A stretch of 43,893 nt of DNA from Ideonella sp. (lineage in GTDB: Bacteria; Pseudomonadota; Gammaproteobacteria; Burkholderiales; Burkholderiaceae_C), in contig JBDHSE010000001.1 in NCBI GenBank assembly GCA_039807955.1, forward strand, positions 1 through 43,893, in the 5' to 3' direction. A model generated the notes under the pieces. The model searched no databases and was not told the DNA's origin. It saw only the letters and a list, made by a program, of their open reading frames with translations. Every line of letters begins with the position of its first letter. The stretch's first letter is position 1. This document shows positions 4,946 through 39,148 of this stretch, one piece after another. The position numbers and the translations under genes were made by a program.

Positions 4946-5758
4946 ATGACCTGCAACCACATCGTCTTCATCGTCATGGACAGTTGCCGCTACGACAGCT
5001 TCGTCGCCGCGCGCACGCCCAACATCGACCGGCTCGGTCAAGCCGAGCGGCGCTACTCGTACGCGTCGTGGACCGCGCCGTCGCACCATGCCTTCGCGAT
5101 GGGCATGATGCCGCACGCGAGCCCGAAGGAGGTGTTCGCGTCAGAGGTCTACAAGGAGGAGTTCTCGCTGTGGACCGAGCGCACCGGACACGCCGGCATC
5201 CAGTTCAAGGAGTTCCTGCCCGACCTGTCGCTGCCGAAGGTGCTGCGCAACATCGGCTACCGCACGGTGGCCAAGGTGTCGCTGCCGGTGCTCAACAAGA
5301 ACACGCTCATCAGCCGCGACTTCGACGACTACAAGCTGATGAAGAACCACAACGACTTCGCCGGCATGATCGACGAGATGGAGTTTCCCGACGAGCCGCA
5401 CTACTACTTCCTCAACCTCGGCGAGACGCACTATCCGTACATGCTCTCGGGCGCCGACCTGCCGCACATCTCGGGCGTACACGGCGCGCTGAAGTCGATG
5501 GACGACGCGCCGGCGCGCGCCGAGAAGCAGACCTTCGACGCGGCGCAGATGCGGATGCTGCAGCAGCAGCAGGTGAAATGCGTCGAGTACATCGACGGCC
5601 AGATCGGCCGCCTGATGGCGCAGACGCCGCCGAACACGCATTTCATCGTCACCGCCGACCACGGGGAACTGTTCGGCGAGGATGGCTACTTCGGCCACGG
5701 ACCGATCATGCACGAGAAGTGCTTCGAGGTGCCGTTCGTCGAGGGCCGCCTGGCCTGA
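4946..5758 (+). CDS. Small alkaline-phosphatase-superfamily enzyme (NPP/sulfatase-like fold, probable Thr nucleophile)
   Basis: IVFIVMDSCRYD is the metal-binding Asp strand. SWTAPSHHAFAMGMMP is a T-x-P...G..P nucleophile-loop pattern like that of NPPs. TADHGELFGEDGYFGHG is the C-terminal metal ligand motif. Confidence 0.7.
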   Translation: MTCNHIVFIVMDSCRYDSFVAARTPNIDRLGQAERRYSYASWTAPSHHAFAMGMMPHASPKEVFASEVYKEEFSLWTERTGHAGIQFKEFLPDLSLPKVLRNIGYRTVAKVSLPVLNKNTLISRDFDDYKLMKNHNDFAGMIDEMEFPDEPHYYFLNLGETHYPYMLSGADLPHISGVHGALKSMDDAPARAEKQTFDAAQMRMLQQQQVKCVEYIDGQIGRLMAQTPPNTHFIVTADHGELFGEDGYFGHGPIMHEKCFEVPFVEGRLA

Positions 5759-5771
5759 CGACAGCCGCGCG

Positions 5772-6683
5772 ATGGCCGATCCGCTGTTCCTGCTGGCGCC
5801 GCCGAGGTCGTACACCTCGCTCGTCAATGCGATGCTCGGGCAGCATCCGCAGGCGTTCGGGCTGCCCGAGTTGTGCCTGTTCAACGTCGACAAGCTGATC
5901 GACCTGTGGCGCGGCTCGAAAGGCGAGATCTCGGAGAACGGCGCGCTGGTGCGCCACGGCCTGCTGCGCGCCGTCTCCGAGATCTACTGCGGCGAGCAGC
6001 GCGCGACGACCGTCAACATGGCCCTGGTCTGGCTCGCGCAGCGCGAGGAGTGGGACACCGGGCGGATCTTCCGCGAACTGGTCGACAAGATCGACCCGCT
6101 GGTCGCCGTCGAGAAGAGCCCTTCCTACGTGATGTCGGTCAAGCGCATGCAGGCGATCCTGCGCGCGTTTCCGAACGCGCGGTTCGTGCATCTGGTGCGC
6201 CACCCGATCGCGCAGGGCAAGTCGCTGATGGTGATCAACGACGGCGCCTTCTGCCTCAAGGTCGAGGGCTTCGAGCTCGGCGAGGACTATGCGCTGATCG
6301 AGCCGCAGATCGCTTGGCATGACATGAACATGAACATCCTCGACTTCCTCGACGACGTCGCGCCCGAGCGGCAGATCCGCCTGCGCGGCGAGGACGTGAT
6401 GGCCGAGCCGCAGCGCTACCTGGCCCAGATCGCGCGCTGGGCCGGATGGCGCGACGATGACGCGGCGATCGAGGCGATGATGCATCCCGAACGCTCGCCG
6501 TTCGCGTGCTTCGGTCCGATCAACGCGCTGTTCGGCAACGATCCCAACTTCCTCGCCGGGCCGACCTTCCGGCCGCACACGCCGAAGCTGCCGAAACTTT
6601 CGGGACGCCTGCCGTGGCGCACCGACGGCAAGGGCCTGTACCCCGAGGTGATTGCGCTCGCCAACGAGTTCGGCTATGTCTAG
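5772..6683 (+). CDS. PAPS-dependent sulfotransferase family protein
   Basis: 5'-PSB-like loop LLAPPRSYTSL. 3'-PB-like FVHLVRHPIAQGKS. Size about 300 aa. Confidence 0.75.
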   Translation: MADPLFLLAPPRSYTSLVNAMLGQHPQAFGLPELCLFNVDKLIDLWRGSKGEISENGALVRHGLLRAVSEIYCGEQRATTVNMALVWLAQREEWDTGRIFRELVDKIDPLVAVEKSPSYVMSVKRMQAILRAFPNARFVHLVRHPIAQGKSLMVINDGAFCLKVEGFELGEDYALIEPQIAWHDMNMNILDFLDDVAPERQIRLRGEDVMAEPQRYLAQIARWAGWRDDDAAIEAMMHPERSPFACFGPINALFGNDPNFLAGPTFRPHTPKLPKLSGRLPWRTDGKGLYPEVIALANEFGYV

Positions 6684-6713
6684 CACCAGACTCCGCAGCG
6701 GCAGGGCCACGCG

Positions 6714-7130
6714 ATGAATGCACCGCCCCCTTCCGGCAAGGCGCCGCGCAAGCGCCTGTCGCCGGTGCCCGAGGATCCGCAGACCGGCCGGCCGGATTCG
6801 GCGCTGCTGTCGCCGCAGCAGCGTGCGCTTCGCACGGCGATGATCGACGCCTACGCGGCGAAGAAGGCGCGCCGCTTCCTCGAGCGTCAGGTCGAGCACA
6901 TCAACATCAAGCGCGAACTGGCCGAGGGGATCAAGTTTCTGTTCGACGAGCACGGCCGCCCGCCGCACAACGCGCCGCTCGAGGACATCGTCGACGAGCG
7001 GCGGCGGATCGAGTATCAGATCAAGTGGTTCGAAGGCATCCTGCAGGAGCTTCACCACCGGCTGGTCCGGGTCAAGGAAGTCGAGGACTACGCATTCGAG
7101 ATGCTGTCGCGCGCATCGCCCGACGAATGA
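6714..7130 (+). CDS. Hypothetical cytoplasmic protein (disordered basic N-terminus, helical C-terminus)
   Basis: Good GC3 codon bias. The stop overlaps the start of the next gene (ATGATGA at 7127-7133). I recognised no family. Confidence 0.55.
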   Translation: MNAPPPSGKAPRKRLSPVPEDPQTGRPDSALLSPQQRALRTAMIDAYAAKKARRFLERQVEHINIKRELAEGIKFLFDEHGRPPHNAPLEDIVDERRRIEYQIKWFEGILQELHHRLVRVKEVEDYAFEMLSRASPDE

Positions 7131-8677
7131 TGAAGGCGACCGCGACGAACGACGAACCTATCCCCCCGGCCCGCGTGCGTGGGCGGCCGGGCGGGGGGCG
7201 CTGGCGCGTCGGCGTCTGCATGTTCGCGCTCGGGCTGGCGGGCTGTGTCCTGGGGCCCGACTACAAGCGTCCCGATGTCCCATTACCCAAGGCCTGGCAG
7301 GCCGAACCGAAGGACGCGGCTGACCTCGCGAATACCGACTGGTGGAAGGCGTTCAACGACGCCGACCTCGACGCGCTCATCGAAACTGCGCTCGACGCGA
7401 ACAAGGACCTGAAGCTCGCAACGCTGCGCGTCGCCGCGTTCGATGCACGACTGCAGGTGAGTCGATCGGCGAACTATCCGCAGATCGGCTACACCGCCTC
7501 GGCGCAGCGCCGGCGCTACAGCCAGGAGCAGCCGACCGGCGCCGGCGGGCTGCAGTCGGGGGTCGGACCGATCGTCAACAACTTCGCCTTGGGCGCCGTC
7601 CTCAACTGGGAGATCGACCTCTGGGGCCGCGTCAAGCGATCGAACGAGGCGGCGCTCGCCGACCTGATGGCCAGCGAGGACGCACGCCGCGGCGTGATGC
7701 TGACGGTGGCGTCGAGCGTCGCGTCGAGCTATGTCGAACTGCTCGCGCTCGATCAGGAACTCGCCATTGCCCGCAAGGCGCTTGCCAACCGCAAGGAAGC
7801 CCTTGCATTGATGCAGACGAAGTACGAGGGCGGGTCGGGGACGCGGCTGGCGATCGAACAGGCGCGTGCCGATGTCGAGAAGACAGCGTCGGAAATACCG
7901 CCGATCGAAACGAGCATCGCGCGCACCGAAGGGGCGCTCAATCTGTTGCTCGGCAGGAACCCCGGGCCGGTGCAGCGCCGCACGCTGGATGCGCTGGCCC
8001 TGCCGCGAATGCCGCAGGGTGTGCCGGCCGACGTGCTGACGCGGCGCCCGGACGTGATGGCCGCCGAACAAGATCTGATCGCGGCGAACGCCCGTATCGG
8101 CGTCGCGAAGACGGCGTACTTCCCGACCCTGTCGCTTGCTGCCGCGATCGGCCTCGCGAGCGACGACCTGCGCTGGCTGTTCGCCGAAACGGCGCGCACG
8201 GGGATCGCCGGTGCCGTCCTCGCCGGGCCGATCTACACCGGCGGCCGCGTCGAGGGCGAAATTCGCGAGGCCGAACTCAACCAGCAACAGATGGCGGTGC
8301 GCTTCGAACAGTCGGTGCAGCTCGCGCTGCAGGAGGTGGAGGACGCTCTCGTGACGCGCGCCAAGTCCGAGGAACGCGAGAACGCGATGGGGCGTCGCGT
8401 CGGCGCCTTGCGCGAGGCGGAGAAACTCGCCGGCGTGCGCTACGAAGGCGGTCAGTCGACATACATGGAGGTGCTCCAGGCGCAGTTCGAGACGATCGGG
8501 GCGCAGAGCGTGCAAACCCAGAGCCGGCGCGACACCTCGCTTGCACTGATCACCGTCTACAAGGCGATGGGTGGGGGCTGGATGGTGGAGTACGACAAGC
8601 GCAAGGCGGCCGCGACTCCTGGCGCCGACGCGCAGGCGCAGGCGCAGACCGCGGACGAAACCGGGACGCAACGATGA
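7127..8677 (+). CDS. Outer-membrane efflux lipoprotein, NodT/TolC family
   Basis: The lipobox LAGC is followed by the NodT signature GPDYKRP. Two OEP repeat halves are present. The C-terminal VYKAMGGGW is typical of the family. A later start near 7220 (MFALGLAGC) is possible. Confidence 0.9.
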   Translation: MMKATATNDEPIPPARVRGRPGGGRWRVGVCMFALGLAGCVLGPDYKRPDVPLPKAWQAEPKDAADLANTDWWKAFNDADLDALIETALDANKDLKLATLRVAAFDARLQVSRSANYPQIGYTASAQRRRYSQEQPTGAGGLQSGVGPIVNNFALGAVLNWEIDLWGRVKRSNEAALADLMASEDARRGVMLTVASSVASSYVELLALDQELAIARKALANRKEALALMQTKYEGGSGTRLAIEQARADVEKTASEIPPIETSIARTEGALNLLLGRNPGPVQRRTLDALALPRMPQGVPADVLTRRPDVMAAEQDLIAANARIGVAKTAYFPTLSLAAAIGLASDDLRWLFAETARTGIAGAVLAGPIYTGGRVEGEIREAELNQQQMAVRFEQSVQLALQEVEDALVTRAKSEERENAMGRRVGALREAEKLAGVRYEGGQSTYMEVLQAQFETIGAQSVQTQSRRDTSLALITVYKAMGGGWMVEYDKRKAAATPGADAQAQAQTADETGTQR

Positions 8678-11121
8678 CCGAGCAGACCAAGAAGATCGTT
8701 TTGCCGCCGCACCTGTCGCGGCGGCTGGAGGCGTTCCGGATCGTCAAGGACGGCGAGCAGAGCTACGTGCTGCGCGACAAGCTGCACGGCGAGAGCTACG
8801 ACTTCGAGCCCTGGCAGTTCTTCATCCTCGAAGTGCTGCCGGGCTGCGAGTCGCTGCAGCGGCTGCAGACCGCGTTCCAGGACCGCTTCGACCGCACGCT
8901 CACCGAGGAGGACGTTGGCGCGCTCTTCGCGTCGATCGCCGATCGCCAGTTATTCGACGAGAGCGCGGCGCAGCATCCGCTGCTCACGCCCTACATGCAC
9001 GTCACCTACCGCGTCGAGGATGGCAAGGCGATACCCAAGCCGTTCGGCGCCGCCGCAGGCGCACCGGCCCTGGCCGCCGCTCCGGCCGCGGCCGCGCAGG
9101 CTGCCGCGGCCGTCCCCGATCCGGAGGCCGATCTGCCGCCGGGCGTGCAGGATGCGCTCGGCCTGGACTGGCGCACGACGACGCGGATGCTTGGCCTGTT
9201 CGATCCGCGGCCGGTGTTTCGCGTCGTCGGCCCTGTGCTCAGGCCGCTGCGCTACATCACCTACGTCGTGCCGCTGCTGCTGCTCGCCGCGATCCTGATC
9301 GTGTTCCAGTATTCGGAGATCTTCTTCGCGGATCTCGCCAATCTGGCGATCGAGAAGACGCTGGTCGAACACCTGCTGTTCGTCTTCGTGACGGTTCACA
9401 TCGTGACGACGCTGACCGCAGGGCTGGTCGCCGACTCGTTCAAGGTGTCGGTCGAGAAGATCGGCATCACGCTGACGATGTGGGTCCTGCCGCGCTGGGT
9501 GCTCAAGATGAACGGTGCCGACCGGCTCAATCGCACCCAGACGATGTGGCTGCACGGTTCGACGCTGATCGCCCGCATGGTGATGTTCAGCGCCGGCGTG
9601 CTGATCTGGTTCAACTCGCGCGACAGCGACAGCGGCTTCGCGACCTTCGGCTTGCTGCTCGGCTTGGCGTGTGCCGCCGGCCTGCTGCTCGAGTCCGGCA
9701 ACCCGCTGATCAAGGCCAACGGCTACTACCTGTTGTCCGCGTACCTGGACGAACCGCATCTGCGCGGCAAGGCCTTTGCCGCGCTGCTGAACAAGTTCAA
9801 AGGCGGCGTCTACCGCGCGGCGGACAGCAATCTGCTCGCGCTCTACGCGTTGGCATCCGCGACCTACGTCGTCTTCATCCTGCTGCTGGTCGGCTGGCTG
9901 ATCACGAAGTATCTGGTCGTCGATCTGGCGCTCGGCGGTTCAGGGGTGGTCATCGTGATCGCCTTCCTCGCGCTGATGGCGTGGCGCAATTACGTCGGTC
10001 TCAAGCAGTTCGGCGAGACCTACGCGAAGAAGGCCCAGTTCGACCGCTGGCGCAGCCGGACCTTGCCGAGCGAAGTTGTCCAGGGCGAGGTCAAGCCGCG
10101 GAAGAGGCGCTACTGGACGACGGCCGCGATCGTCTGCCTGATCCTGGTGCTGTTCATCCCCTACAGCTACGAGGCGGGCGGCCCGTTCGTCATCTACCCG
10201 ACGCAAAAGCAGGTCATCTCGACCGACGAGTCGGGCCTGGTCGAGGCGGTCTACTTCGATGGCGGTGAATCGGTCAAGCAGGGCACGGTGATCGCGCGCC
10301 TGGCGCACGAGGACTACGACGCGAAGATCAAGGTGCTCGACGCGAAGATCGACGAGCAGGCGGCTGTTCTCAGGAATCTCGAGACCCTGCCCCGTCCCGA
10401 AGAGGTCAAGCTCGCGAAGGAGGCGCTCGAGGTGCAGCGCACGCGCGAGGCGTTCAGCCGCGAGAAGGCGCCGCGACTCGAGAAGATGTACAGGGCCGGC
10501 GCCGTTTCGTTCGAGGAGTACGACGCCGCGCGCAAGGAACACATGACCGACGTGCAGCAGGTCGCGCAGAAGGAGGCCGAACTCGCGCTCGTGAAGGCGC
10601 CGGTGACCGCAGCGCAGATCGAGGCCGCCGAGGCCAAGCTCGTCAGCCTGAAGGAGGAGCGTGCGACGTTCGTCGCCAAGCTCGATCGCACCGTGCTGCG
10701 AATGCCTTTCGACGGCAACATCCTGACGCTGCACCTGAAGGACAGGATCAACAGCTTCCTGGAGAAGGGCACGCCGTTCGCGGCGCTCGAGTACACCGGT
10801 GTCGTCACTGCCGAGATCGATGTCCCCGAGCCGGACATCGAGTACGTGAAGCTCGGCGCGACCGTCCGGCTGCGCCCGTCGTCGTTCTACGACGACAAGG
10901 AATTCGAAGGCAAGGTGACGACGATCGACCGCAACGTCACGGTCAAGCCGACCGGCAACGTCATCAAGGTGATCGCGACGATCGAGAACCGGGCGGGGCA
11001 GTTGAAGACCGGCATGACCGGCCGCGCGAAGATCGAGGGCGTCACGATGCCGGTCTGGCAGGCGTTCACCCGAAGCGTCGCCCGCTTTTTCAAGATCACG
11101 GTCTGGTCGTGGATCCCCTGA
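8674..11121 (+). CDS. Fusion protein: N-terminal PqqD/RRE-like domain, polytopic membrane domain (degenerate M50-like?) and HlyD-family periplasmic adaptor
   Basis: ATGA overlap with the OMP gene. Residues 1-100 follow a PqqD-like pattern (YVLRDKLHGESYDFEPWQFFILEVLPGCESLQRL...TLTEEDVGALFASIADRQLFDE), then an Ala/Pro linker. Several hydrophobic helices span about 9253-10170, including ESGNPLIKANGYY. The C-terminal third has HlyD barrel-sandwich, coiled-coil and beta-barrel regions (VKQGTVIARL...coiled coil...MPFDGNILTL...GMTGRAKI). Confidence 0.8.
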   Translation: MTEQTKKIVLPPHLSRRLEAFRIVKDGEQSYVLRDKLHGESYDFEPWQFFILEVLPGCESLQRLQTAFQDRFDRTLTEEDVGALFASIADRQLFDESAAQHPLLTPYMHVTYRVEDGKAIPKPFGAAAGAPALAAAPAAAAQAAAAVPDPEADLPPGVQDALGLDWRTTTRMLGLFDPRPVFRVVGPVLRPLRYITYVVPLLLLAAILIVFQYSEIFFADLANLAIEKTLVEHLLFVFVTVHIVTTLTAGLVADSFKVSVEKIGITLTMWVLPRWVLKMNGADRLNRTQTMWLHGSTLIARMVMFSAGVLIWFNSRDSDSGFATFGLLLGLACAAGLLLESGNPLIKANGYYLLSAYLDEPHLRGKAFAALLNKFKGGVYRAADSNLLALYALASATYVVFILLLVGWLITKYLVVDLALGGSGVVIVIAFLALMAWRNYVGLKQFGETYAKKAQFDRWRSRTLPSEVVQGEVKPRKRRYWTTAAIVCLILVLFIPYSYEAGGPFVIYPTQKQVISTDESGLVEAVYFDGGESVKQGTVIARLAHEDYDAKIKVLDAKIDEQAAVLRNLETLPRPEEVKLAKEALEVQRTREAFSREKAPRLEKMYRAGAVSFEEYDAARKEHMTDVQQVAQKEAELALVKAPVTAAQIEAAEAKLVSLKEERATFVAKLDRTVLRMPFDGNILTLHLKDRINSFLEKGTPFAALEYTGVVTAEIDVPEPDIEYVKLGATVRLRPSSFYDDKEFEGKVTTIDRNVTVKPTGNVIKVIATIENRAGQLKTGMTGRAKIEGVTMPVWQAFTRSVARFFKITVWSWIP

Positions 11122-11177
11122 TCGACCTCGTACACGAACCACGCCATCCGCAGCCCTCCCATCGACCAGGAAAGCCC

Positions 11178-12140: not shown

Positions 12141-12449
12141 ATGACGAACGAAACCCCCGCCCCGAAATTCACGCGCGACGAGATCGAGCGCGACATCATC
12201 GCGATCCTGACCGACATGACCGCCGACTGGGATCTGTCCTTCACCGGCGGCATCAAGCCCGACACCCGGCTGATGGCCGATCTGGCGTTCGAGTCGATCG
12301 ACGTCGTGCAGCTCGTCGTCGCGATCGAGGCCCACGTCAAGCGTCGCCATCTGCATTTCGAGAAGCTGCTGATGGCCGATGGCCGCTACGTGCAGGAACT
12401 GCAGGTCAAGCAGATCGCCGACTTCCTCGCGCAGCAGTTCGCCGAGTGA
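12141..12449 (+). CDS. Discrete acyl/peptidyl carrier protein
   Basis: 102 aa. The phosphopantetheine-site-like motif is DLAFESIDVVQLV, with the Ser codon at 12294-12296. This is an atypical E-S-I rather than D-S-L. Confidence 0.75.
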   Translation: MTNETPAPKFTRDEIERDIIAILTDMTADWDLSFTGGIKPDTRLMADLAFESIDVVQLVVAIEAHVKRRHLHFEKLLMADGRYVQELQVKQIADFLAQQFAE

Positions 12450-12489
12450 TGTCGCGAACCCGACCGTCGCGTCTCGACGTCTGACGCCG

Positions 12490-15459: not shown

Positions 15460-15577
15460 TTGCGTGATGGCGGACTGGGGCTTTCCACCCGGCCCATCCC
15501 GGGTGGTCGGCGCGCCGAGTTCGGGCCAAGAGGGTCGCAGGAACTCCGATTCTTTGTGCCACCGGAGGGAGATGCAT

Positions 15578-32100: not shown

Positions 32101-33965
32101 GCAGCGATGCAGCGGTATCCGGCAACGACGCGCGCCTGTCCGTGATGGCCGACTACTTCGACCTGATGCGCGGCTTTCTGGATCAGCAGCGGGCGCTCGT
32201 CGAGGGCCTGTCGTCTCGATCTGTCCTGTCGGCGGCCGACGCCGCCGCGACGGCGCCACAATGGGCCTCGACACATGCACGCGACAGTCTGACGCCGCTG
32301 CTCGACGAGATCGTCGAGGCCGACGATTCGCATGTCGTCGCGCGCTGCGTCGTCAGCCTTGCGAACGACAACTTCATCCGCGACCATGTGATGTCGGGCC
32401 CGGTGTCGGAGGCGGACTCCGGGTTGTTCGGTCTGTCGTGCGTGCCGTTCACTGTCAGCCTCGAGGTCATGGCCGAAGCCTGCGCGCTGCTCGCGGGGCG
32501 CACCGACGTGAAAGTGATCGAGAACGTCAAGGCGCTCGACTGGGTCGCGCTCGATGAAGGCGAGCTGGGCTTCGAGGTGCGCGCCGACGTGCTCGACCGG
32601 GCGCGCGGCCGCTATGCGGCGCGCGTGATCACGGCGCGCGGCGCGGTGCTGACGGCGGAGATCTGTTTCGAGGCCGACTGGCAGTTGCCGGCGATGGCGC
32701 CGCTTGGCGATCCGCGCGAATCCTGCCTCAACGAACCGGACCTGTACGCGACCGGCATGTTTCACGGGCCGGTCTTCCAGTCGATGGCGCACGCCCAGGC
32801 CTGGGACGACAGCGGCATCGATGTCGAGCTCTCCGAGGTCGGGCTGCGCGACTTCTTCGCCGTCGGTCACACGCCGCAACTCGTGTTGAACCCGGTGCTG
32901 CTCGACGCGATGGGGCAGATCGTGGCGCTGTGGTACGCGCAGTACATCGGCACCCAGTTCCATGCCTTCCCGTCGACTATCGCGCGCATCGAACTGCACG
33001 AGCACTGCCCGAGCGACCGTGCCGGGATCGTGATGCGCACCCGGCAGCGGCCGCTGGACGCCGACGAGATTGCACTCTCGGCGCCGCGTGCGTTCCAGTT
33101 CGAATGCGTCGACGGCGAAGGCCGTCTGCTGCTGCGTGCGCAGGACCTGGTCAACATCTTCTTCGTCGTTCCGCCGGCCTACCACGACGTTCGCACCGAT
33201 CCGCTCAATGGCTGGCTCGGCCAGCCCCTGCCGCTGCTGCCCGATGCCGGCGTCGCGCTGTGGGAAGTGCCGCTGATGTCCGAGGAGTTCTGCTCGCAGT
33301 CGGGCGGCATCTGCCTGCGCATCATGGCGCACGCCTTGCTCGCGCCGGCCGAGCGCGACGAGTGGTACGCGCTGCAGGGCAGGCTGCGGCGCCGCCGTGA
33401 ATGGCTGTTCGGGCGTGCCGCGCTGAAGGAGGCGGTGCGGCTGTGGGTCGCCGAACAGACGGGGCATCTGCTGCACCCGACCGACATCGTCGTCGAGCAC
33501 GACGCCCAGGGCGCGCCGATCGTCGGCGGTGCATGGCGCGACAGTCTGATCGCCGCGCCGCGCGTCTCGTTGGCACACAACGCGGACACCTGTCTGGCCG
33601 CGATCGCCGCGCCCGACAGACCCGTCGGCGTCGACCTCGAAGCGCTCGGGCGCATCACCCGGCCCGAGCATCTCGCCGATTCGCTTGCGCCGCAGGAACA
33701 GCCGCGCGTCCAGGGTCTGTCCGGGCCGGCTCTTGACGAGCGCCTGCTGCGCCTGTGGTGCGCGAAGGAGGCGGCGGCGAAGTATCTGGGCACCGGTCTG
33801 CAGGGAAGGCCCGGCGATTTCGTCGTCGTCGCTGCCGACGCGGACTGTGAAAAGCTCCTCGTCCGGCACGGTGTCGCCACGGTCGAGGCACACGTCGTGC
33901 GACACGACGCTAGGATCATCGCCCTTGCCGGGCATCAAAGCGTCAACATGGAAGTCCACGGATGA
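29151..33965 (+). CDS. Type I FAS/PKS megasynthase: KS / atypical AT / DH / C-terminal Sfp-type PPTase
   Basis: ATGA overlap with the upstream synthase. Approximate domain spans and motifs:
- KS, 29184-30540: DAACSSS with Cys at 29775-29777, EAHGTGI, SMISHCIPAAG.
- AT, 30872-31780: FPGEGSQ, GHSSGE, and RGYHTS where HAFH/YASH normally sits.
- DH, 32290-33180: IRDHVMSG, MFHGPVFQ, LLDAMGQ.
- PPTase, 33310-33962: FGRAALKEA, VGVDLE, WCAKEAAAK. Confidence 0.95.
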   Translation: MNESTLDQPAPIAIIGMACMFAQAPDLQTFWNNILAGVDAIGEPVENWGAQRYLDAGRIKTQFGGYLKDLYRFDPRAFGIMPNSLDGGEPDQFIALRVASDALADAGYLGAGFDHSDTGIILGHSTYLHRGQGTIIQNDIGVDQTMDVVCAMLPQLDADKRARIRAMLEATIPPMTPDIAPGLVPNVMTGRIANRLDLHGPNYLVDAACSSSLLAVSAAIDELRAGRSRMMLAGGVNASLPADVTTIFTQLGALSARGKVRPFEAGSDGTLLGEGLGVVVLKRLADALADGDRVYAVLRGVGQSSDGRGTGLLAPSQEGETLAIRRAYQASGIDPASVSLVEAHGTGIPLGDRTEIASLKAVFGERRTPIGVKALGSVKSMISHCIPAAGVASLIKMALSLHHRVLPPTLCDAVNPELGIDATPFYVNTQAAPWITHLDSPRRAAVNAFGFGGTNAHAIIEQAPAEARTPPRLGAWPAELCVLSADSDAALVARLEALGTALARRPDWRLAEVAAALARDDRAQAHRIAIVATDTTALAKRIEQVLQRMREGRASDRWTARGGVAYGSQRVDGKLAFLFPGEGSQYPAMFAGLAMCFDVVQQWLDFWHGLYELPPGQTRTDIVFPTSEIGAERRRELEQRMQDMDVGSESVFIGDMAMHELLVSLGVEPDAMLGHSSGESAALAACGANPALTPAERAYCISRHFAVYEELLAAGKIPTGALLAVGALPPATVESLVAQAGDVVVAMDNCSNQMVLYGSHDGIARVHALLTQEGGICLPLPFDRGYHTSVFSDVSAAFLQYYKDVKVGRPVIPLYSCASADLFPTNPSAVRKLAAAQWSKKVRFRETVLKMHDDGVRLFVEVGPSAKLTAFVNDILIDRDFISVSTNVRRKNDVEQFLAVLGQLYVAGRGPALERLFESRAIAAIDLEGPAPAPRGVLLDNTMPMLRLGAAQRETLRQLAAPPPAAPAPSKDGAQPYVQPMAAGSDAAVSGNDARLSVMADYFDLMRGFLDQQRALVEGLSSRSVLSAADAAATAPQWASTHARDSLTPLLDEIVEADDSHVVARCVVSLANDNFIRDHVMSGPVSEADSGLFGLSCVPFTVSLEVMAEACALLAGRTDVKVIENVKALDWVALDEGELGFEVRADVLDRARGRYAARVITARGAVLTAEICFEADWQLPAMAPLGDPRESCLNEPDLYATGMFHGPVFQSMAHAQAWDDSGIDVELSEVGLRDFFAVGHTPQLVLNPVLLDAMGQIVALWYAQYIGTQFHAFPSTIARIELHEHCPSDRAGIVMRTRQRPLDADEIALSAPRAFQFECVDGEGRLLLRAQDLVNIFFVVPPAYHDVRTDPLNGWLGQPLPLLPDAGVALWEVPLMSEEFCSQSGGICLRIMAHALLAPAERDEWYALQGRLRRRREWLFGRAALKEAVRLWVAEQTGHLLHPTDIVVEHDAQGAPIVGGAWRDSLIAAPRVSLAHNADTCLAAIAAPDRPVGVDLEALGRITRPEHLADSLAPQEQPRVQGLSGPALDERLLRLWCAKEAAAKYLGTGLQGRPGDFVVVAADADCEKLLVRHGVATVEAHVVRHDARIIALAGHQSVNMEVHG

Positions 33966-34050: not shown

Positions 34051-35658
34051 ATGACCGTTCGCACCCTCTTCATCGGCATGGACGGTGCCACGTTCACCAT
34101 CCTCGACGAACTGACCAAGGCCGCACCCGACAGCGCGAGCGGCCCGGTGATGCCGTTCATGGCGCGCATCTTCAAGGAAGGCACGCGCGCCAAGCTGCGC
34201 TCGACGCCGAATCCGCTGACGCCGCCGGCGTGGGTCTCGTTGATGACCGGCCGCGGCCCCGGGCATCACGGCGTCTACGACTTCGTGCGCGCCGAGGAAC
34301 GCGGCGACAAGGTCTTCATGACGCTGTTCGACGCCCGCGACTGCCGCGTCGAGACGATCTGGTCGATCGCGAGCCGGCAAGGCAAGCGCATCGCGGCGCT
34401 CAACTTCCCGTTTACCGCGCCGCCGCCGAGCGACCTCAACGGCCTCATCGTTCCGGGCTTCGTGCCGGCGCGCCACCTGCGCCGCAACACCTATCCGCCC
34501 GAGCTGTACGACCGCCTGAAGAAGATCCCCGACTTCAATGCGACCGAGCTCGCCTGGGACTTTGACCAGGAACAGCAGGCCGGCTACGAACTCAGCGAGC
34601 AGGATCGCGAGGCGTGGGTGCGCTACCACCTGCCGCGCGAGATGCAGTGGTTCCGCGTCGCCGAGTACCTGATGCGCGAAGAGGCGCCGGACCTGATGGC
34701 GGTTCTCTTCGACGGCGTCGACAAGCTGCAGCACCAGGCCTGGCAGTACCTCGACCCGCGCCTGCCGCAGGACGGCATGGGCGAGTACCACGCCCGCATG
34801 CGCAAGCTCTCGCTCGCCTACTTCGCCCAGCTCGACAGCTTCGTCGAGCGCCTCGTCACCGCCGCCGGCCCCGATGTGCAGGTCTTCTTCGCATCGGACC
34901 ACGGCTTCACGGCGTCGACCGAGGTCGTTCGCATCAACGCCTACCTCGCCGAGAAGGGCTACGTCCACTTCAAGCCGATGCCCGAGGGCACCGAGGGCTT
35001 CAACGTCAGCAAGAGCTATTTCGCGTACCTCGACTGGACGAAGACGACGGCCTACTGCCGCACGCCGTCGTGCAACGGCATCACGATCCGCGTCGCGCGC
35101 CAGCCGGGCGAGACCGGCATCGACCCGAAGGACTACGAGAAGGTGCGCGCGCGTCTGATCCGCGACCTCGAGGAGCTGAAGGACGCCGAGACCGGCGAGC
35201 GCATCATCACCGAGATCCACATGCGCGAGGACGTGTTTCCCGGCGCGGCGATGCACGACGCGCCCGACCTGCAACTCGTGCTGCGCGACTTCGGTTTCGT
35301 TTCGGTACGCAACATCCTGCCGATCGTCCAGAAGCGCAACTACGTCGTCGGCACCCACCATCCGGAGGGCGTCTTCATGGCCTACGGCCCGGGCATCGCG
35401 GCCGGCAAGCTGATCGGCAGGCGCCACATCACCGACGTCGCGTCGACACTGCTTTACAGCGTCGGGCTGCCCGTGCCGTCGGACTTCGAGGGGGTCGTGC
35501 CGCCGGCGATGTTCACCGACGAACACAAGGCGGCGCATCCGATCGAGATCGGCGCCCCGACCCAGGGTGGCGCCAACACCAGCCTGACCGAGGCGATGGA
35601 CGAGGACGAGAAGAAGCAGATCATGGATCAGCTGCAGATGCTCGGCTACATGGAATAA
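34051..35658 (+). CDS. Type I phosphodiesterase/nucleotide pyrophosphatase (NPP) family protein, alkaline-phosphatase superfamily
   Basis: FIGMDGATF is the metal Asp strand. LTPPAWVSLMTGRGPGHHGV is the Thr nucleophile loop, matching the NPP pattern T-x-P....TG..P..HG. FFASDHGF is the C-terminal metal ligand motif. Confidence 0.8.
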   Translation: MTVRTLFIGMDGATFTILDELTKAAPDSASGPVMPFMARIFKEGTRAKLRSTPNPLTPPAWVSLMTGRGPGHHGVYDFVRAEERGDKVFMTLFDARDCRVETIWSIASRQGKRIAALNFPFTAPPPSDLNGLIVPGFVPARHLRRNTYPPELYDRLKKIPDFNATELAWDFDQEQQAGYELSEQDREAWVRYHLPREMQWFRVAEYLMREEAPDLMAVLFDGVDKLQHQAWQYLDPRLPQDGMGEYHARMRKLSLAYFAQLDSFVERLVTAAGPDVQVFFASDHGFTASTEVVRINAYLAEKGYVHFKPMPEGTEGFNVSKSYFAYLDWTKTTAYCRTPSCNGITIRVARQPGETGIDPKDYEKVRARLIRDLEELKDAETGERIITEIHMREDVFPGAAMHDAPDLQLVLRDFGFVSVRNILPIVQKRNYVVGTHHPEGVFMAYGPGIAAGKLIGRRHITDVASTLLYSVGLPVPSDFEGVVPPAMFTDEHKAAHPIEIGAPTQGGANTSLTEAMDEDEKKQIMDQLQMLGYME

Positions 35659-35672: not shown

Positions 35673-36728
35673 ATGCCGATCGCGACCATCAACGGAGTCG
35701 GACTCAACTACGTCCAGCTGGACGACGGGGGCGGGTCCGCGCGCGAAGATCTCGTCATGGTGCATGGCCTGGCCACCAACATGGCGTTCTGGTACTTCCG
35801 CTACGGCCTCGCGCTGTCCAAGCGGTTTCGCGTCACGCTGTACGACCTGCGCGGGCACGGTCGTTCGGAGATGCCGGCGTCGGGCTATTCACCGCGCGTC
35901 CTCGCCGGCGACCTGGCGGGCCTGATGGACCACCTCGGTATCGACAAGGCGCATCTGATGGCGCACAGCTTCGGTGGCGTCGTCGCGCTGAACTTCGCCT
36001 GTGCCCGGCCCGAACGGGTGCGCAGCCTGGTCCTTGCCGACAGCCATTTCTCGGCCGGCCGCGAGGCGCAGGAGCGCGAGGCGTGGAGCTTCAGCCAGAA
36101 GGTCCAACCGGTGCTCGACCGCATGGGGGCGGGGCTTTCGACCAGCGATCCGTACTTCGGCCCCAAGCTGCTGACCCGCGTTGCCGAGTGGCAGCTGCAC
36201 GGCAAGGAGGTGCCGGCCGAGCTCGTCGATCTGGTCAGCCCGCTCCTGGGCCGGAGCGGCAAGCGCAGCTCGGCCGCGTGGCTGCAACTGATGAACACGA
36301 CCTCGGCCGAAGCCGAGATGCTCAGCGACGACGGGCTATCGCTCGAGCGCCTGCGCGAGCTGCACTTCCCGATCATCGCGATGTACGGCGACCATTCGCC
36401 GGCCCGGCTCTCGGGCGCCGAGCTGCTGGCGATCTGGCCGCATGCCGAGTTCCAGCGCGTGCGCGACGCCGGCCACTTCTTCCCGACCTTGCGTCCCGAA
36501 GAAGTCCTGTCGGCGTGTCTTCGTTTCTGGGGCGGCGAGTTCGCGGCGACGCCGCGCCGCTATCGCCGCGGCGAAGCCCGGCGCAGCTACTTCCGCAGCG
36601 ACCGCATCTTCCGCGCCGACAACGGCTGGCATTTCACGACGCGCGACGAGAACCGGATTGGCCCGTTCAGCACGCGCGAGGAAGCCGGCAAGGCGCTGGA
36701 TCGCTTCATCTCGACGCTGGACGCGTGA
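35673..36728 (+). CDS. Alpha/beta-fold hydrolase with an approximately 65-aa basic/aromatic C-terminal extension
   Basis: Motifs VMVHGLA, LRGHGRS, nucleophile elbow AHSFGG and the catalytic His region DAGHFFP. The C-terminal tail is RRSYFRSDRIFRADNGWHFTTRDENRIGPFSTREEAGKAL. Confidence 0.8.
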   Translation: MPIATINGVGLNYVQLDDGGGSAREDLVMVHGLATNMAFWYFRYGLALSKRFRVTLYDLRGHGRSEMPASGYSPRVLAGDLAGLMDHLGIDKAHLMAHSFGGVVALNFACARPERVRSLVLADSHFSAGREAQEREAWSFSQKVQPVLDRMGAGLSTSDPYFGPKLLTRVAEWQLHGKEVPAELVDLVSPLLGRSGKRSSAAWLQLMNTTSAEAEMLSDDGLSLERLRELHFPIIAMYGDHSPARLSGAELLAIWPHAEFQRVRDAGHFFPTLRPEEVLSACLRFWGGEFAATPRRYRRGEARRSYFRSDRIFRADNGWHFTTRDENRIGPFSTREEAGKALDRFISTLDA

Positions 36729-38212
36729 TGGTGGCGGTGGCGAACCGGCTCGGGGTGCGCCCCGGGCTGAGCCGGGAACACTTCAAGCTGATCGCCTATG
36801 GCGGCTTCGGCGACGGCCACAACTCGTACGCGCACTCGATGGTCTGGTTCGACGGCCGCCTGTACGTGAGCACGATCCGCGGCGCGTTCGCCCTCATGCG
36901 CAAGCGCCACGCCGGCAGTCTCGGGCTGGACGTGTGGCCGGTCGAGGGGCCGGTGGACCCGTTCGACCTCGACCTGTGCGCCGAGATCTGGGCCTACGAT
37001 CCGCGCATCGACCGCTGGGAGCGCGCCTACAAGTCGCCGATGATCGTCGGCAGCGACGGCCAGCGCATCCCGCGCGAGGTCAGCTATCGCGCGATGGCGG
37101 TGCACGTCGAGCCGGCGACCGGCAAGCCCGTGCTGTACGTCTGCACCTGGTCGCCGGCAAAGGGGCCGGGGCCGATCATCCTGCGCTCCGAAGACGGACG
37201 CCGCTTCGAGCAGACCTGCGAGCCGGGCCTCGTCGGGCTGCCGGTGACGACGATCCGCTCGCTCGTCTCGTTCAAGGGCATGCTTTTCACGACGCCGGCC
37301 GGCGCGCGCGGCGGCAACCAGAACATCTCGGGCCACGTCGTGGTCTACGGCAGCCGCGACCCGGCAGCCGGCCAGTGGGAGCCGGTCACCGACTTCGCTT
37401 TCGGCGACCTGAGCAACAAGTCGGTGCACGAACTCTGCGCCTGGGGCGACCACCTCTACGCCGGCACCCTCAATCACGAGGGCTTCCAGCTCTGGCGCAG
37501 CCGCTGCGAAGGCGAGCCGCCGTACGCGTGGGAGCGCGTGCTGACGCGCGGCGCCTGGCGCGGGCCCGAGAACCAGGGCGTGCTCAGCATGGCGCCGTTC
37601 AAGGGGTCGCTCTACATCGGCACCGGCATCCAGGGCGGCGGCATCGACAAGCTCAACAAGATCGGCCCGGCCGCGGCCGAGCTGATGCGGCTCAACGCCG
37701 ACCTCAGCTGGGACCTGATCGTCGGCGAGCCGCGCGACACGCCCGATGGCCGCAAGGAGCCGCTGTCGGGCCGGCGCGCCGGATTCGACGACTTCTTCAA
37801 CGGCTACATGTGGCGCATGTGCGAGCACGAGGGATGGCTCTACGTGAGCACCTTCGAGTGGAGCGCCTGGCTCGGCTACGTCAAGCACAGCCGCTGGCCC
37901 GGCGCGTTCGCCAGGCTGCTCGCCTACGTCACGCCCAAGACCATGTTCGACAACGGCGCCGGCTTCGACCTGTACCGCAGCAACGACGGCGTCAACTGGG
38001 TGCCCGTCACGACCAACGGCATGGGCAATCCGTACAACATGGGCCTGAGGACGCTCGAATCGACGCCCTACGGGCTGTTCCTCGGCACCGCGAACCCCTG
38101 GGGGCCGAAGGTAATGCCGCTCGACGGCGACGAGTATGTCTTCAATCCGCGCGGCGGATGCGAGGTGTTCCTCGGTCGATCGCCGGATAAGGTGAGCCGG
38201 GAATCGGGCTGA
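36728..38212 (+). CDS. Conserved hypothetical protein, BNR/Asp-box-like beta-propeller
   Basis: Recurrent strand motifs are present. Asp-box-like S-x-D-G-x-x-(W/F) occurs at RSEDGRRFE and RSNDGVNWV. The start overlaps the upstream stop (GTGATG at 36725-36730). Confidence 0.65.
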   Translation: MVAVANRLGVRPGLSREHFKLIAYGGFGDGHNSYAHSMVWFDGRLYVSTIRGAFALMRKRHAGSLGLDVWPVEGPVDPFDLDLCAEIWAYDPRIDRWERAYKSPMIVGSDGQRIPREVSYRAMAVHVEPATGKPVLYVCTWSPAKGPGPIILRSEDGRRFEQTCEPGLVGLPVTTIRSLVSFKGMLFTTPAGARGGNQNISGHVVVYGSRDPAAGQWEPVTDFAFGDLSNKSVHELCAWGDHLYAGTLNHEGFQLWRSRCEGEPPYAWERVLTRGAWRGPENQGVLSMAPFKGSLYIGTGIQGGGIDKLNKIGPAAAELMRLNADLSWDLIVGEPRDTPDGRKEPLSGRRAGFDDFFNGYMWRMCEHEGWLYVSTFEWSAWLGYVKHSRWPGAFARLLAYVTPKTMFDNGAGFDLYRSNDGVNWVPVTTNGMGNPYNMGLRTLESTPYGLFLGTANPWGPKVMPLDGDEYVFNPRGGCEVFLGRSPDKVSRESG

Positions 38213-38350
38213 GCGTTGGGCAGACCGGCATGGCTCGCGGCACTCGCGGCGGCGCGATCGGCTGCCGTGAACGGGGATCGGCTGCGCGAAAACCGGCTCG
38301 ATCGCACGGCACGACCCGAGCCCGACGATCCATCGGCTCCGCGCCATCCG

Positions 38351-39148
38351 ATGACTGCAGGCGGAGCGTTCGAGTTGCCGCCCGGTGCCACCGTCGAGCG
38401 CGACGTCCGCTACGGGCCAGACCCGGCTCAGGCAATCGACATCTACCGACCGGCACAGGCCGATGGCGTGCCGGTGATGCTGATCGTCCACGGCGGCGCG
38501 TGGAGCCGCGGCGACAAGGGCCTGCTGCGCAGCGTGCGCAACAAGGTCTTGCACTGGGTCGGCCGCGGCTGCGTGCTCGTCTCGGCGAACTACCGCATGC
38601 TGCCGCAGGCCCGTCCGCTGGAGCAGGCCGACGACGTGGCGCGCGCGCTTGCTTTCGTCCAGCGCCAAGCGCGCGACTGGGGCGCCGACGGTTCGCGGGT
38701 CGTGTTGATCGGGCATTCGGCGGGCGCCCATCTGGTGTCGCTGCTCGCCGCCGATCCGCGGATCGGCGCGCGGGCCGGCGTCGAGCCCTGGCGCGCCACG
38801 ATCAGCATCGACAGCGCCGCGTTCGATCTGGTCCGGATCATGACGCGCAGGCACTTCGGCTTCTACGACCGGGCATTCGGCGCCGACCCCGCCGACTGGC
38901 GCGAGGCCTCGCCGTTTCACCGGCTGCAATCGCCGCCGGAAGCGCCGTGGCTCGTGGTGTGTTCCTCGCTGCGCGGGGATTCGTGCCCGCAGGCGCAGGC
39001 GTTTGCCGCCAAGGCCGCTGTCCTCGGTGGGAACGTTACGGTGCTCGAGGTCGCGCTGTCGCACGCCGACCTGAACGACCTGCTCGGCGCGCCCGGCGCC
39101 TACACCGACGCGGTGGATGCCTTCCTGCGGACGCAGGCCCTGCCCTGA
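38351..39148 (+). CDS. Alpha/beta hydrolase (esterase/lipase-type, HGG class)
   Basis: IVHGGAW oxyanion motif and nucleophile elbow GHSAGA. The start is uncertain. TTG 38216 and GTG 38267 are in frame upstream, but GC3 bias is weaker there. Confidence 0.7.
   Translation: MTAGGAFELPPGATVERDVRYGPDPAQAIDIYRPAQADGVPVMLIVHGGAWSRGDKGLLRSVRNKVLHWVGRGCVLVSANYRMLPQARPLEQADDVARALAFVQRQARDWGADGSRVVLIGHSAGAHLVSLLAADPRIGARAGVEPWRATISIDSAAFDLVRIMTRRHFGFYDRAFGADPADWREASPFHRLQSPPEAPWLVVCSSLRGDSCPQAQAFAAKAAVLGGNVTVLEVALSHADLNDLLGAPGAYTDAVDAFLRTQALP

Follow-up and report, generated by a model that had tools for sequence, protein, structure and literature searches.

A widespread Pfa-like synthase locus joined to a CurM-type sulfotransferase and a putative envelope export module in Ideonella sp.

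Gene content of the locus

The window studied here is the whole stretch of 43,893 nucleotides from Ideonella sp. (contig JBDHSE010000001.1 of assembly GCA_039807955.1, positions 1 to 43,893). Between positions 4946 and 39148, it carries a locus in which two large synthases of the fatty acid synthase (FAS)/polyketide synthase (PKS) type, PKS1 and PKS2, are found together with a sulfotransferase, an outer-membrane channel, an adaptor protein and several tailoring and envelope proteins. The locus is real, coherent and widespread, and it has no known product. A sulfated long-chain lipid, exported to the envelope, is the product that we tentatively propose.

The G+C content of the window lies between 65 and 73%, so that raw lists of open reading frames (ORFs) are crowded with shadow ORFs. 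Genes were picked by third-position G+C (GC3) and frame, in addition to ORF calls. This gave 24 genes in the window, 19 of which are within 4946-39148. Domains were assigned by Pfam and NCBIfam hidden Markov model (HMM) searches of the window proteins. Within 4946-39148 all genes are on the + strand, except for two minus-strand genes (18123-19382 and 19435-20442) located just upstream of PKS1. Several ORFs are over-long; from homologue alignments, the likely true starts are at about 5772 for the sulfotransferase (g5) and about 12487 for the short-chain dehydrogenase/reductase (SDR, g11). A sequence-only reading of this window had described the genes as co-directional and tightly spaced or overlapping. 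This holds for most of them, but not for the two minus-strand genes, and some of the overlaps came from over-long ORFs.

The two megasynthases

PKS1 (g17, 20932..29154, + strand) contains an enoyl reductase (ER)-like domain, a FabK-like ER, a ketosynthase (KS), an acyltransferase (AT), an acyl carrier protein (ACP), a ketoreductase (KR) and a dehydratase (DH). PKS2 (g18, 29151..33965, + strand) contains KS, AT and DH domains followed by an Sfp/HetI-like phosphopantetheinyl transferase (PPTase). All these domains were detected with Pfam and NCBIfam models. Alignments of PKS1 with its homologues open at residue 18 of the ORF that begins at 20881. The two genes overlap by ATGA, through which PKS2 is predicted to be translationally coupled to PKS1. 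Thus, the two coupled megasynthases of the sequence-only reading, with the domain repertoire it gave them, were borne out.

The reductive N-terminal part of PKS1 is composed of a weak NMO-like domain (residues ~18-340, E 1.4e-4, below the Pfam cutoff) and an NMO/FabK-like ER (residues 336-628). The only NCBIfam model matching residues 1-700 was FabK (TIGR03151, 90 bits), and no PfaD-family model matched this region at E<=0.01. As a whole, PKS1 just passes the omega_3_PfaA model TIGR02813, with 1026.6 bits for a cutoff of 1010.1. It carries a single ACP (LGIDS), seen as one PP-binding match and one GxDS motif near residue 1856; further ACPs were looked for in residues 1561-2160 and none was found, even at E<=1.

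The catalytic motifs of the two synthases are well conserved. Both KS domains, in PKS1 and PKS2, keep Cys-His-His, and the locus therefore has no chain length factor (CLF). GHSxG is present in both AT domains, and the KR of PKS1 displays a B-type-like IED motif. Both DH domains are of the PS-DH/PKS_DH_N type. DH1, in PKS1, is a PKS-type double-hotdog domain with HxxxGxxxxP, GPxxQ and DxxxQ all present. DH2, in PKS2, shows HxxxG, GPVFQ (GPxFQ) and DxxxQ, with an 11-residue insert before the proline. Hence the PKS-type motifs announced earlier for both dehydratases were found, but that of DH2 is interrupted by this insert. The PPTase motifs of PKS2 (VGVDLE and WCAKEAAAK) are intact. Among the 24 window proteins, Pfam and NCBIfam revealed no FabA-type DH, no thioesterase (TE), no type III PKS and no glycosyltransferase. 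HMMs and motifs thus agreed with the earlier account of one integrated ACP, with none of these activities and no CLF. As the synthases combine ER, KR and two DH domains, with no isomerising DH, the chain is expected to be largely saturated.

Searches with PKS2 were of little help for its placement. Compared with PDB sequences, PKS2 gave generic modular-PKS matches. Its DH-PPTase part belongs to a large superfamily, for which the named representatives found were only Fontimonas and Synechococcus. A tblastn search of PLSDB plasmids found KS-AT matches only, generic and under 40% identical, with no cluster in synteny.

The sulfotransferase, the discrete carrier protein and the hydrolases

The sulfotransferase g5 (5772..6683, + strand, in an ORF open from 5682) is free-standing, has ~303 residues and matches Sulfotransfer_3 (3.5e-23). 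When g5 was compared with all PDB sequences, the only meaningful relatives were the sulfotransferases of CurM (4gbm, 6.7e-20) and Ols (4gox, 1.1e-15). The three other matches were RecA constructs with no scoring domain, and no tyrosylprotein sulfotransferase was found in this search. In an alignment of ~260 residues with these relatives, the 5'-phosphosulfate (PSB) loop for 3'-phosphoadenosine-5'-phosphosulfate (PAPS), the PEL catalytic glutamate, KSPSY and LVRHP are conserved. Since both its PDB relatives and its aligned motifs are those of CurM and Ols, g5 belongs with the sulfotransferases that sulfonate 3-hydroxyacyl-ACP.

The discrete ACP g10 (12141..12449, + strand, 102 residues) was recognized by weak NCBIfam ACP matches (6e-5 and worse) and by its serine motif ESID. 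It belongs to the conserved core of the locus, and its counterpart in other lineages sits between PKS2 and the gene of a nucleotide pyrophosphatase/phosphodiesterase (NPP) enzyme. Two alpha/beta hydrolases lie downstream of the synthases. The first, g20 (35673..36728, + strand), combines an Abhydrolase_1 domain (Ser-Asp-His) with a C-terminal DUF6316; it is syntenic, is part of the core and is the candidate chain-releasing thioesterase. Its PDB relatives are generic esterases, lactonases and epoxide hydrolases, and the CurM TE was not among the top 60 PDB matches. The second, g22 (38216..39148, + strand), is an esterase of the HSL family (BD-FAE/Abhydrolase_3 in Pfam) that forms the downstream border. 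It is a frequent accessory gene, syntenic in three related loci (L001, L022 and L023), and its best PDB relatives are esterases and lipases. The PDB searches with g20 and g22, with the CurM TE absent from the matches listed, thus indicated no CurM-TE-like hydrolase in the locus.

The putative export genes

Directly after the sulfotransferase comes g6 (6714..7130, + strand), a cytoplasmic and mostly helical protein of 138 residues that has no Pfam or NCBIfam match. It is followed by g7 (7127..8677, + strand), an outer-membrane channel lipoprotein of the NodT family (TIGR01845 outer_NodT, 340.9 bits for a cutoff of 210; two Pfam OEP matches; lipobox LAGC). The adaptor gene g8 (8674..11121, + strand) encodes an 815-residue fusion recognized by Pfam HlyD_3/HlyD_D23 and by NCBIfam RND_mfp. 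It is made of an N-terminal cytoplasmic domain, an M50/S2P-like domain with six transmembrane segments (TM) and an EmrA/MacA-like periplasmic adaptor. In a Foldseek comparison of its AlphaFold2 (AF2) model, the periplasmic part matched EmrA (4tko, 8.8e-18) and MacA, in the range of 1e-16 to 1e-18. It bears the long alpha-hairpin of the EmrA/MacA type, both of which are TolC-docking adaptors. Compared with g8, the DevB model gave a weak and generic match (40 bits, cutoff 129).

The membrane domain of g8 resembles the intramembrane HExxH proteases of ribosomally synthesized and post-translationally modified peptides (RiPPs). NCBIfam gave weak matches to daptide_HExxH (2e-6, residues 173-446) and YydH/LiaK (0.0028). 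H[ED]xxH was absent from g8 and from nine homologues of diverse loci. Thus, judging from its sequence, this domain is a pseudo-protease. One source names g8 homologues 'putative peptide zinc metalloprotease'. In the AF2 model, residues 1-100 form three strands followed by three helices, the order typical of PqqD-like recognition domains. As a RiPP recognition element (RRE)/PqqD domain, this region had no Pfam match at E<=1, and a PDB profile search returned nothing. In hhalign with a PqqD template sequence, the expected helices were aligned, with a probability of 2%. The idea of a PqqD-like domain is a weak lead.

Distribution of the locus and linkage of its genes

Homologues of PKS2 fall into at least 120 clusters at 60-88% identity. 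The named sources are Ideonella sp. BN130291, Rubrivivax gelatinosus, Rubrivivax sp. and Rhodanobacteraceae, and many homologues come from metagenome-assembled genomes (MAGs). The label 'orphan', given earlier to the locus, is thus right for its product, which is not known, but loci of this kind are common.

When genomes were scanned with the double SDR as seed, seven Burkholderiales loci were recovered, including those of Ideonella and Rubrivivax albus ICH-3. In five of them (L003-L007), a DUF11 protein, g4, the sulfotransferase, g6, the channel, the adaptor, the methyltransferase, the ACP and the SDR are followed by a variable zone and then by PKS1. In the two others (L002, with a contig end upstream, and L008), the upstream block is present and PKS1 is beyond the range fetched. 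The gene order g3-g11, then PKS1-PKS2-g19-g22, is kept in Ideonella, in Rubrivivax albus and in Burkholderiales MAGs. Loci anchored on PKS2 run on as PKS2-(ACP)-NPP-hydrolase/DUF6316-propeller-esterase.

With the sulfotransferase as seed, 80 loci were recovered from metagenomes, and the counts that follow are among loci long enough to be tested. After the sulfotransferase, g6 was found in 64/64 loci, the NodT channel in 42/45 and the adaptor in 30/30. Upstream of the sulfotransferase and adjacent to it, g4 was present in 44/55. The association with the synthases takes several forms. In L044, L047, L048, L049 and L078, PKS1 is split into an ER-ER-KS-AT gene and an ACP-KR-DH gene, and the sulfotransferase-g6-channel-adaptor module sits between the two halves (for example L048:4121-20903). 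The interruption of a megasynthase gene by accessory genes in these five loci is unusual. In L074, L095 and L099, the same module comes directly after the core genes. Finally, in L104, a MAG labelled Alphaproteobacteria, a compact co-directional run reads PKS1-PKS2-ACP-NPP-hydrolase-propeller-adaptor-sulfotransferase-g6-esterase-channel.

A more distant and rearranged version was found in L009, from a Ca. Sulfomarinibacteraceae MAG (CAVQSQ010000021). It has a PKS2-like gene, an ACP, an NPP enzyme, a hydrolase and a propeller, together with single SDRs, an esterase and, on the opposite strand, an M50-like/HlyD gene; no sulfotransferase came up in the 20.7 kb retrieved. This version indicates that the core extends past close Burkholderiales relatives. 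In L022 (1-1380), PKS1 is directly preceded by a fusion of the CysN/CysC type (GTP_EFTU + APS_kinase) and a transporter of the TauE/SafE family; in L023 (1-56), TauE likewise directly precedes PKS1. The position of these genes, which have no counterparts in the window, suggests a dedicated supply of PAPS in some lineages.

From the split-PKS1, module-after-core and L104 arrangements, the conserved core consists of PKS1, PKS2, the ACP, the NPP enzyme, the hydrolase/DUF6316 protein, the propeller, the adaptor, the sulfotransferase, g6, a secreted esterase and the channel. The methyltransferase, the double SDR, g4, g22, the DUF11 protein, g12/g16 and g14 are recurrent and lineage-variable. The accessory genes listed by the sequence-only reading (sulfotransferase, methyltransferase, ACP, double SDR, two NPP-fold enzymes, two hydrolases, propeller, NodT channel and adaptor) were all confirmed, the ACP on weak matches. 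The methyltransferase and the double SDR, which that reading had listed with the others, lie outside the core. Core members that had received less emphasis are g6, the secreted esterase, the propeller and the ACP-NPP pair. Genes that had escaped description are the esterases g13/g15, the paralogous lipoproteins g12/g16, the secreted protein g14 and the M50-like fusion in g8. The check that had been named for the proposal, co-occurrence of the flanking tailoring and export genes with the synthases, gave a strongly positive answer in the counts above and in L104. These data strongly indicate that the synthases, the tailoring genes and the export genes form one functional unit.

Other genes of the locus and its borders

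Many proteins of the cluster bear lipoboxes or signal peptides. Predicted cytoplasmic proteins are g4, g5, g6, g9, g10, g11, g19, g20, g21 and g22; predicted envelope proteins are g3, g7, g8, g12, g13, g14, g15 and g16.

Two further core genes lie downstream of PKS2. The first, g19 (34051..35658, + strand; the ORF opens at 34009), is an NPP-family protein (type I phosphodiesterase/nucleotide pyrophosphatase; Phosphodiest 7.5e-42) with intact metal and nucleophile threonine motifs (GMDG, LTPPAW...TG...HG and SDHG), and it is syntenic in all PKS-anchored loci. Outside the Burkholderiales arrangement (L022, L023 and L104), the ACP gene stands immediately before the NPP gene and is tightly coupled to it (PKS2-ACP-NPP). 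This pairing gives the idea that the NPP enzyme might act on the phosphopantetheine phosphodiester of acyl-ACP. The second, g21 (36728..38212, + strand), is a cytoplasmic beta-propeller (AF2 model with pLDDT 80.9 and pTM 0.86) that defines a new, highly conserved family. It had no Pfam, NCBIfam or PDB sequence match. Homologues numbered 908, the best 120 of them at 62-95% identity, and every named one is 'hypothetical'. Its structural neighbours are generic propellers only, with TM-scores of 0.3-0.6.

At the upstream end, g4 (4946..5758, + strand) is a small cytoplasmic protein of the alkaline-phosphatase superfamily, NPP/sulfatase-like (Pfam Sulfatase 7e-10, weak Phosphodiest), with the threonine-type nucleophile motif TAPSHH. 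Its match to an STM4013/SEN3800-like model (78 bits) is below the cutoff of 250, and the PDB gave only remote sulfatase matches. Just outside 4946-39148, g3 (3473..4813, + strand) is a lipoprotein with three Pfam DUF11 repeats and the lipobox LLASC. This frequent accessory gene has a counterpart at most 5 kb upstream of the sulfotransferase gene in 19/36 of the loci that could be tested, and also in L003-L008. As a DUF11 gene neighbours g4 and the sulfotransferase in many loci, the DUF11 protein may belong to the system. In three loci (L091, L092 and L100), g4 and the sulfotransferase are set ~1.3 kb apart, and the gap gives a weak DUF11-like match in L091 and L100.

The class I methyltransferase g9 (11109..12092, + strand), which would use S-adenosylmethionine (SAM), matches Pfam Methyltransf_25/11/31 and, weakly, BioC/UbiE and lipid O-methyltransferase-like models. 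It is found in loci of the Burkholderiales type and is absent from the compact L104 run. A BioC/BioH-like logic, with methyltransferase, ACP and esterase leading to a dicarboxylate, was considered and rejected: BioC and BioH matches were far below cutoff, and the methyltransferase is outside the core. The double SDR g11 (12487..14094, + strand; the ORF opens at 12379) is a tandem of two FabG-like ketoreductase domains (two adh_short matches, 1.8e-108; NCBIfam FabG-like). It is syntenic in L002-L008, and a single-domain version is seen in L009.

The zone between the SDR and PKS1 contains envelope proteins. The lipoproteins g12 (14428..15459, + strand, lipobox VASC) and g16 (19435..20442, - strand, GC3 frame, lipobox LVSC) are paralogues of 46-48% identity, both without a Pfam match; homologues of g12 occur close to the sulfotransferase module in L059, L062 and L100, and g16 is syntenic in L002. 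An S-x-x-K-like motif in g12, FSSSKW, is reminiscent of serine beta-lactamases/family VIII esterases. Two secreted esterases resemble poly(hydroxybutyrate) (PHB) depolymerases. One, g13 (15464..16540, + strand), has a signal-peptide-like N-terminus, matches NF050058 (2.4e-26) and, weakly, Esterase_PHB, and has homologues in L001, L104, L074 and L095; the esterase of the core is of this g13 family. The other, g15 (18123..19382, - strand, GC3 frame), matches NF050058 at 4e-9 and is syntenic in L002. Between them, g14 (16736..17977, + strand) is a secreted protein with a signal peptide and no Pfam match, whose homologues recur in related loci.

The genes of the two flanks look unrelated to the locus. 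Upstream are a U32 peptidase and a thiamine pyrophosphate (TPP) enzyme. After the cluster come a ribonucleotide reductase of 1015 residues (39352-42399; Ribonuc_red_lgC, 1.4e-132) and, on the minus strand, NnrS. Beyond the g22 homologue in Ideonella, the genes are different (PhaR-like, MiaB-like and others), which makes 39148 a good downstream border. The window gave no match to any Rfam family, and thus no cobalamin riboswitch precedes the ribonucleotide reductase; promoter and terminator scans gave results that were not above chance. In the upstream half of the locus (4000-21000), G+C is ~0.65-0.68, compared to ~0.69-0.73 in the flanks and synthase genes. This lower G+C is compatible with a separate history of the accessory and export block.

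A proposed pathway and its alternatives

Starting from the domain content and intact catalytic motifs of the synthases, the family of the sulfotransferase and the linkage of the genes, we propose that the locus encodes one conserved pathway that makes and exports a sulfated long-chain lipid, in which the sulfate is retained. This account is tentative, and we put its chances slightly below even. PKS1 and PKS2 would iteratively build, from malonyl units, an acyl chain that we infer to be long and largely saturated. The chain would stay on the single integrated ACP and/or on the discrete ACP g10, with the PPTase of PKS2 priming the carrier proteins. Using PAPS, g5 would sulfonate a hydroxyl of the chain, in the simplest case the (3R)-hydroxyl that the B-type KR leaves in the final cycle. 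Release could be carried out by the cytoplasmic alpha/beta hydrolase g20, and possibly by g22. The released chain might be processed further by the NPP-fold enzyme g19, which is conserved, and by the propeller g21; g4, the methyltransferase and the double SDR may also act on it in this lineage. The anionic sulfated lipid would then cross the envelope via the g8 adaptor docked to the NodT channel g7, with g6 as a putative cytoplasmic partner in export. At the cell surface, the secreted esterases, the lipoproteins and the DUF11 lipoprotein may handle or anchor the lipid.

Retention of the sulfate is favored because the sulfotransferase is linked to the export genes and not to a hydrolase, because no hydrolase of the locus is CurM-TE-like, and because a plain hydrocarbon would need no envelope machinery. 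Similarly, since the sulfotransferase is always contiguous with the export genes, a sulfated species is the expected cargo. Several observations weigh against this pathway. His62 of the CurM sulfotransferase is replaced by a cysteine in g5, and CurM and Ols, the closest characterized sulfotransferases, add sulfate as a leaving group and not as a permanent decoration. The window contains no genes for PAPS synthesis. The pathway gives no step to two conserved proteins, the NPP enzyme and the propeller. The envelope export pair of the sequence-only reading stands as a NodT channel and an HlyD-type adaptor, but no energizing pump accompanies it: no ABC, RND or MFS pump was found in the window, nor in L001, L022, L023 and L104. 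As the locus encodes no inner-membrane pump, the energy source for export is unexplained. Finally, searches of open-access full text found no sulfotransferase-linked version of the locus and no product, and a characterized homologue could have been missed there.

The PDB relatives of g5 confirmed the CurM/Ols character that the earlier reading had raised for the sulfotransferase, and it is this specific likeness that keeps both a retained sulfate and a sulfate-driven olefin alive. With the CurM/Ols logic working in trans, g5 would sulfonate a 3-hydroxyacyl chain on the ACP g10, and thioester hydrolysis by g20 or g22 would drive decarboxylative elimination of the sulfate, giving a very-long-chain 1-alkene or a derivative. 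Indeed, the only solved structures significantly related to g5 are two 'activating' sulfotransferases, both from pathways to terminal alkenes; the ACP-ST-TE parts list (ST: sulfotransferase) has counterparts here in the free ACP, the sulfotransferase and the cytoplasmic alpha/beta hydrolases, the IED motif of the KR fits a (3R)-hydroxyl, and the synthases have no TE domain. However, g20 and g22 show generic esterase, lactonase and lipase similarity with no particular resemblance to the CurM TE, and in most arrangements the sulfotransferase is joined to the export genes rather than to a hydrolase. A hydrocarbon would require neither channel, adaptor, secreted esterases nor lipoproteins, and the conserved NPP enzyme, the propeller and g4 would be left with no substrate. 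We consider an olefin unlikely, though it is the main rival of a retained sulfate. The position of g5 in the activating branch would also fit a sulfate that serves as leaving group for another bond-forming step, catalyzed by g21, g19 or g4 and yielding an ether, a cyclized product or an internal alkene, which would then be exported. Such a step would occupy two enzymes of the alkaline-phosphatase superfamily, a fold that handles sulfate and phosphate esters, and the new conserved propeller, all with roles unassigned, and in 44/55 loci the gene translationally adjacent to the sulfotransferase is g4. This idea is wholly inferential: homologues with chemistry of this kind were not detected, the fold matches of the propeller are generic only, and g4 is missing from the compact L104 run. 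It seems to us improbable.

The architecture of g8 raises the question of whether the cargo could be a lipidated or sulfated peptide or protein. Here g8 would stem from exporters that process peptides, and its N-terminal domain would bind g6, the ACP or the DUF11 lipoprotein, which, acylated with the PKS product or tyrosine-sulfated in a RaxST-like manner, would then be secreted. The likeness of the membrane domain to RiPP HExxH proteases, the peptidase name given to g8 homologues, the PqqD-like order of strands and helices in residues 1-100 and the frequent presence of a DUF11 surface lipoprotein as a neighbour all point this way; the set of sulfotransferase, small protein, adaptor, channel and CysN/C recalls raxX-raxST-raxA. 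On the other hand, HExxH is lacking in every homologue examined, so that no protease activity is expected, and the PqqD comparison was non-significant in hhalign, and the PDB profile search was empty. The 138-residue g6 is conserved and looks folded, unlike a leader-core peptide; there is no RiPP maturase, C39 peptidase or ABC exporter, and the nearest relatives of g5 are acyl-ACP sulfotransferases. Peptide export is thus very unlikely in our view. It could also be asked whether the sulfotransferase and export genes are chance neighbours of the synthases, in independent adjacent operons. In this window, two minus-strand genes and a variable zone (14.4-20.4 kb) part the upstream block from PKS1, and among 13 long sulfotransferase-anchored loci, 2 have neither a core gene nor the g9-g11 block within 10 kb. 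Yet the linkage outlasts extensive rearrangement across genomes labelled Beta-, Gamma- and Alphaproteobacteria, and the module is lodged inside the split PKS1 in five loci and within a single compact run in L104. Chance adjacency is essentially refuted by these arrangements.

Returning to the retained-sulfate pathway, a broader claim can be formulated, which is possible and on balance doubtful. The product would represent a new class of envelope lipids, as a sulfated very-long-chain acyl lipid made by a Pfa/Ars-like synthase. It would leave the cell through a new kind of conduit, in which g8 docks directly to the NodT channel without any pump, and be assembled outside by lipoproteins and esterases; the system would be widespread in freshwater and soil Proteobacteria. 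If the retained-sulfate pathway is right, present views of the Gram-negative envelope would lack a sulfated long-chain lipid that a large group of Beta-, Gamma- and Alphaproteobacteria from the environment produce. The route would combine an iterative synthase of the Pfa/Ars type with a free-standing sulfotransferase of the CurM type and an adaptor and channel that have no pump, a combination not seen before. It would give a function to a 'secondary lipid' synthase type that has been uncharacterized since 2011, widen the known roles of the activating sulfotransferase family and assign the conserved propeller family to a pathway. Were the olefin explanation correct instead, the locus would encode a new, fully trans-acting hydrocarbon pathway of biotechnological interest. 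These proposals are directly testable, since cultured carriers are available (Rubrivivax albus ICH-3, Ideonella sp. BN130291 and R. gelatinosus) and the predicted class of product has a simple mass-spectrometric signature.

Comparison with known systems

The locus shares features with several characterized systems, and the mismatch with the Pfa, Hgl and Ars classes noted by the sequence-only reading is real. Like the canonical Pfa synthases (pfaABCDE), it has an iterative KS-AT-ACP-KR core, an ER (in trans or fused) and a dedicated PPTase, and PKS1 passes the PfaA model. However, four of the five defining features of Pfa fail: tandem ACPs (4-9), KS-CLF, FabA-type DH/isomerase and PfaD-type ER. 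With one ACP, a FabK-like ER, no KS-CLF and no FabA-type DH/isomerase, a polyunsaturated product is not expected.

The relative with a characterized function is the ArsA/ArsD FAS of Azotobacter vinelandii (Type P), which supplies the alkyl chains for the phenolic lipids of cysts; it keeps C22-C26 chains on the ACP and hands them downstream (PMC3098273, PMC6274091, PMC4824345). Like the system described here, it belongs to the Pfa lineage of type I FAS, works iteratively with full reduction and has no TE. Its product is a lipid of the envelope and cyst coat. Unlike in Ars, the type III PKS genes arsB/arsC are absent from the 24 window proteins and from the gene tables of related loci (L001, L022, L023 and L104); conversely, ars is described without sulfotransferase or export module. 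The heterocyst glycolipid system (hgl/DevBCA-HgdD) has a concept in common with the locus, in which a Pfa-like synthase makes a hydroxylated long-chain lipid that is exported to an envelope layer by an adaptor and a TolC-type channel. The present locus differs in having no glycosyltransferase, KS-CLF, thioester reductase or ABC transporter (DevC/DevA), its adaptor being fused to an M50-like pseudo-protease instead. In enediyne PKSs (PKSE), a single polypeptide carries KS-AT-ACP-KR-DH-PPTase and is accompanied by a conserved cassette that includes the E10 TE. Here the domains are divided between two proteins, which bear two KS-AT pairs and also an ER, and no hot-dog TE or cassette genes are found in the window.

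In the ACP-ST-TE of CurM and Ols, the sulfotransferase is of the same family as g5, and the presumed (3R)-hydroxyacyl-ACP substrate could come from PKS1. In contrast, g5 is free-standing and not a domain following an ACP in a modular PKS, with the discrete ACP g10 encoded elsewhere in the locus. Apart from the histidine to cysteine change at position 62, g5 is also coupled to an export module, with g4, g6, the channel and the adaptor as neighbours, and not to a TE. The export genes themselves recall EmrAB-TolC and MacAB-TolC, as g8 is an adaptor with a long alpha-hairpin and g7 a NodT-family outer-membrane channel. They differ in that g8 has its own six-TM M50-like domain and cytoplasmic N-domain, with no pump. 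Contrary to M50/S2P intramembrane metalloproteases, g8 has no HExxH zinc motif. Compared with RaxST-type sulfation and secretion, the sulfotransferase, the small protein, the adaptor and the channel are present, and the ABC/C39 exporter is absent.

The architecture of the synthase pair matches a further type. A fused pfaDA with pfaBC(-PPTase), without CLF, has already been described as a 'secondary lipid' type of synthase with an uncharacterized product (PMC3098273; PMC13291983), so that the earlier statement that no characterized class is matched holds for Pfa, Hgl and Ars but overlooked this type. It corresponds to Type M of Shulse and Allen (2011), known from Frankia, Renibacterium and S. 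avermitilis (PMC3098273), and pfa-like genes of the fused type were reported in 2026 (JACS Au) in Ottowia, Aquimarina and Flavobacterium (PMC13291983). As in these synthases, the ER is N-terminal to a PfaA-like KS-AT-ACP-KR(-DH) protein, and the second protein is a KS-AT-DH without KS-CLF, ending in a PPTase as in some of those reported; this likeness is one of domain order against published descriptions. Unlike the present locus, the Type M and 2026 reports mention no CurM-type sulfotransferase, NPP enzyme, propeller or channel/adaptor module, and the 2026 examples are coupled to nonribosomal peptide synthetase (NRPS)-PKS lines, which are absent here. Thus, going by domain architecture, we class the locus with the 'secondary lipid' synthases of the fused pfaDA/pfaBC-PPTase type, as a variant that has a new, conserved accessory set for putative sulfation and export.

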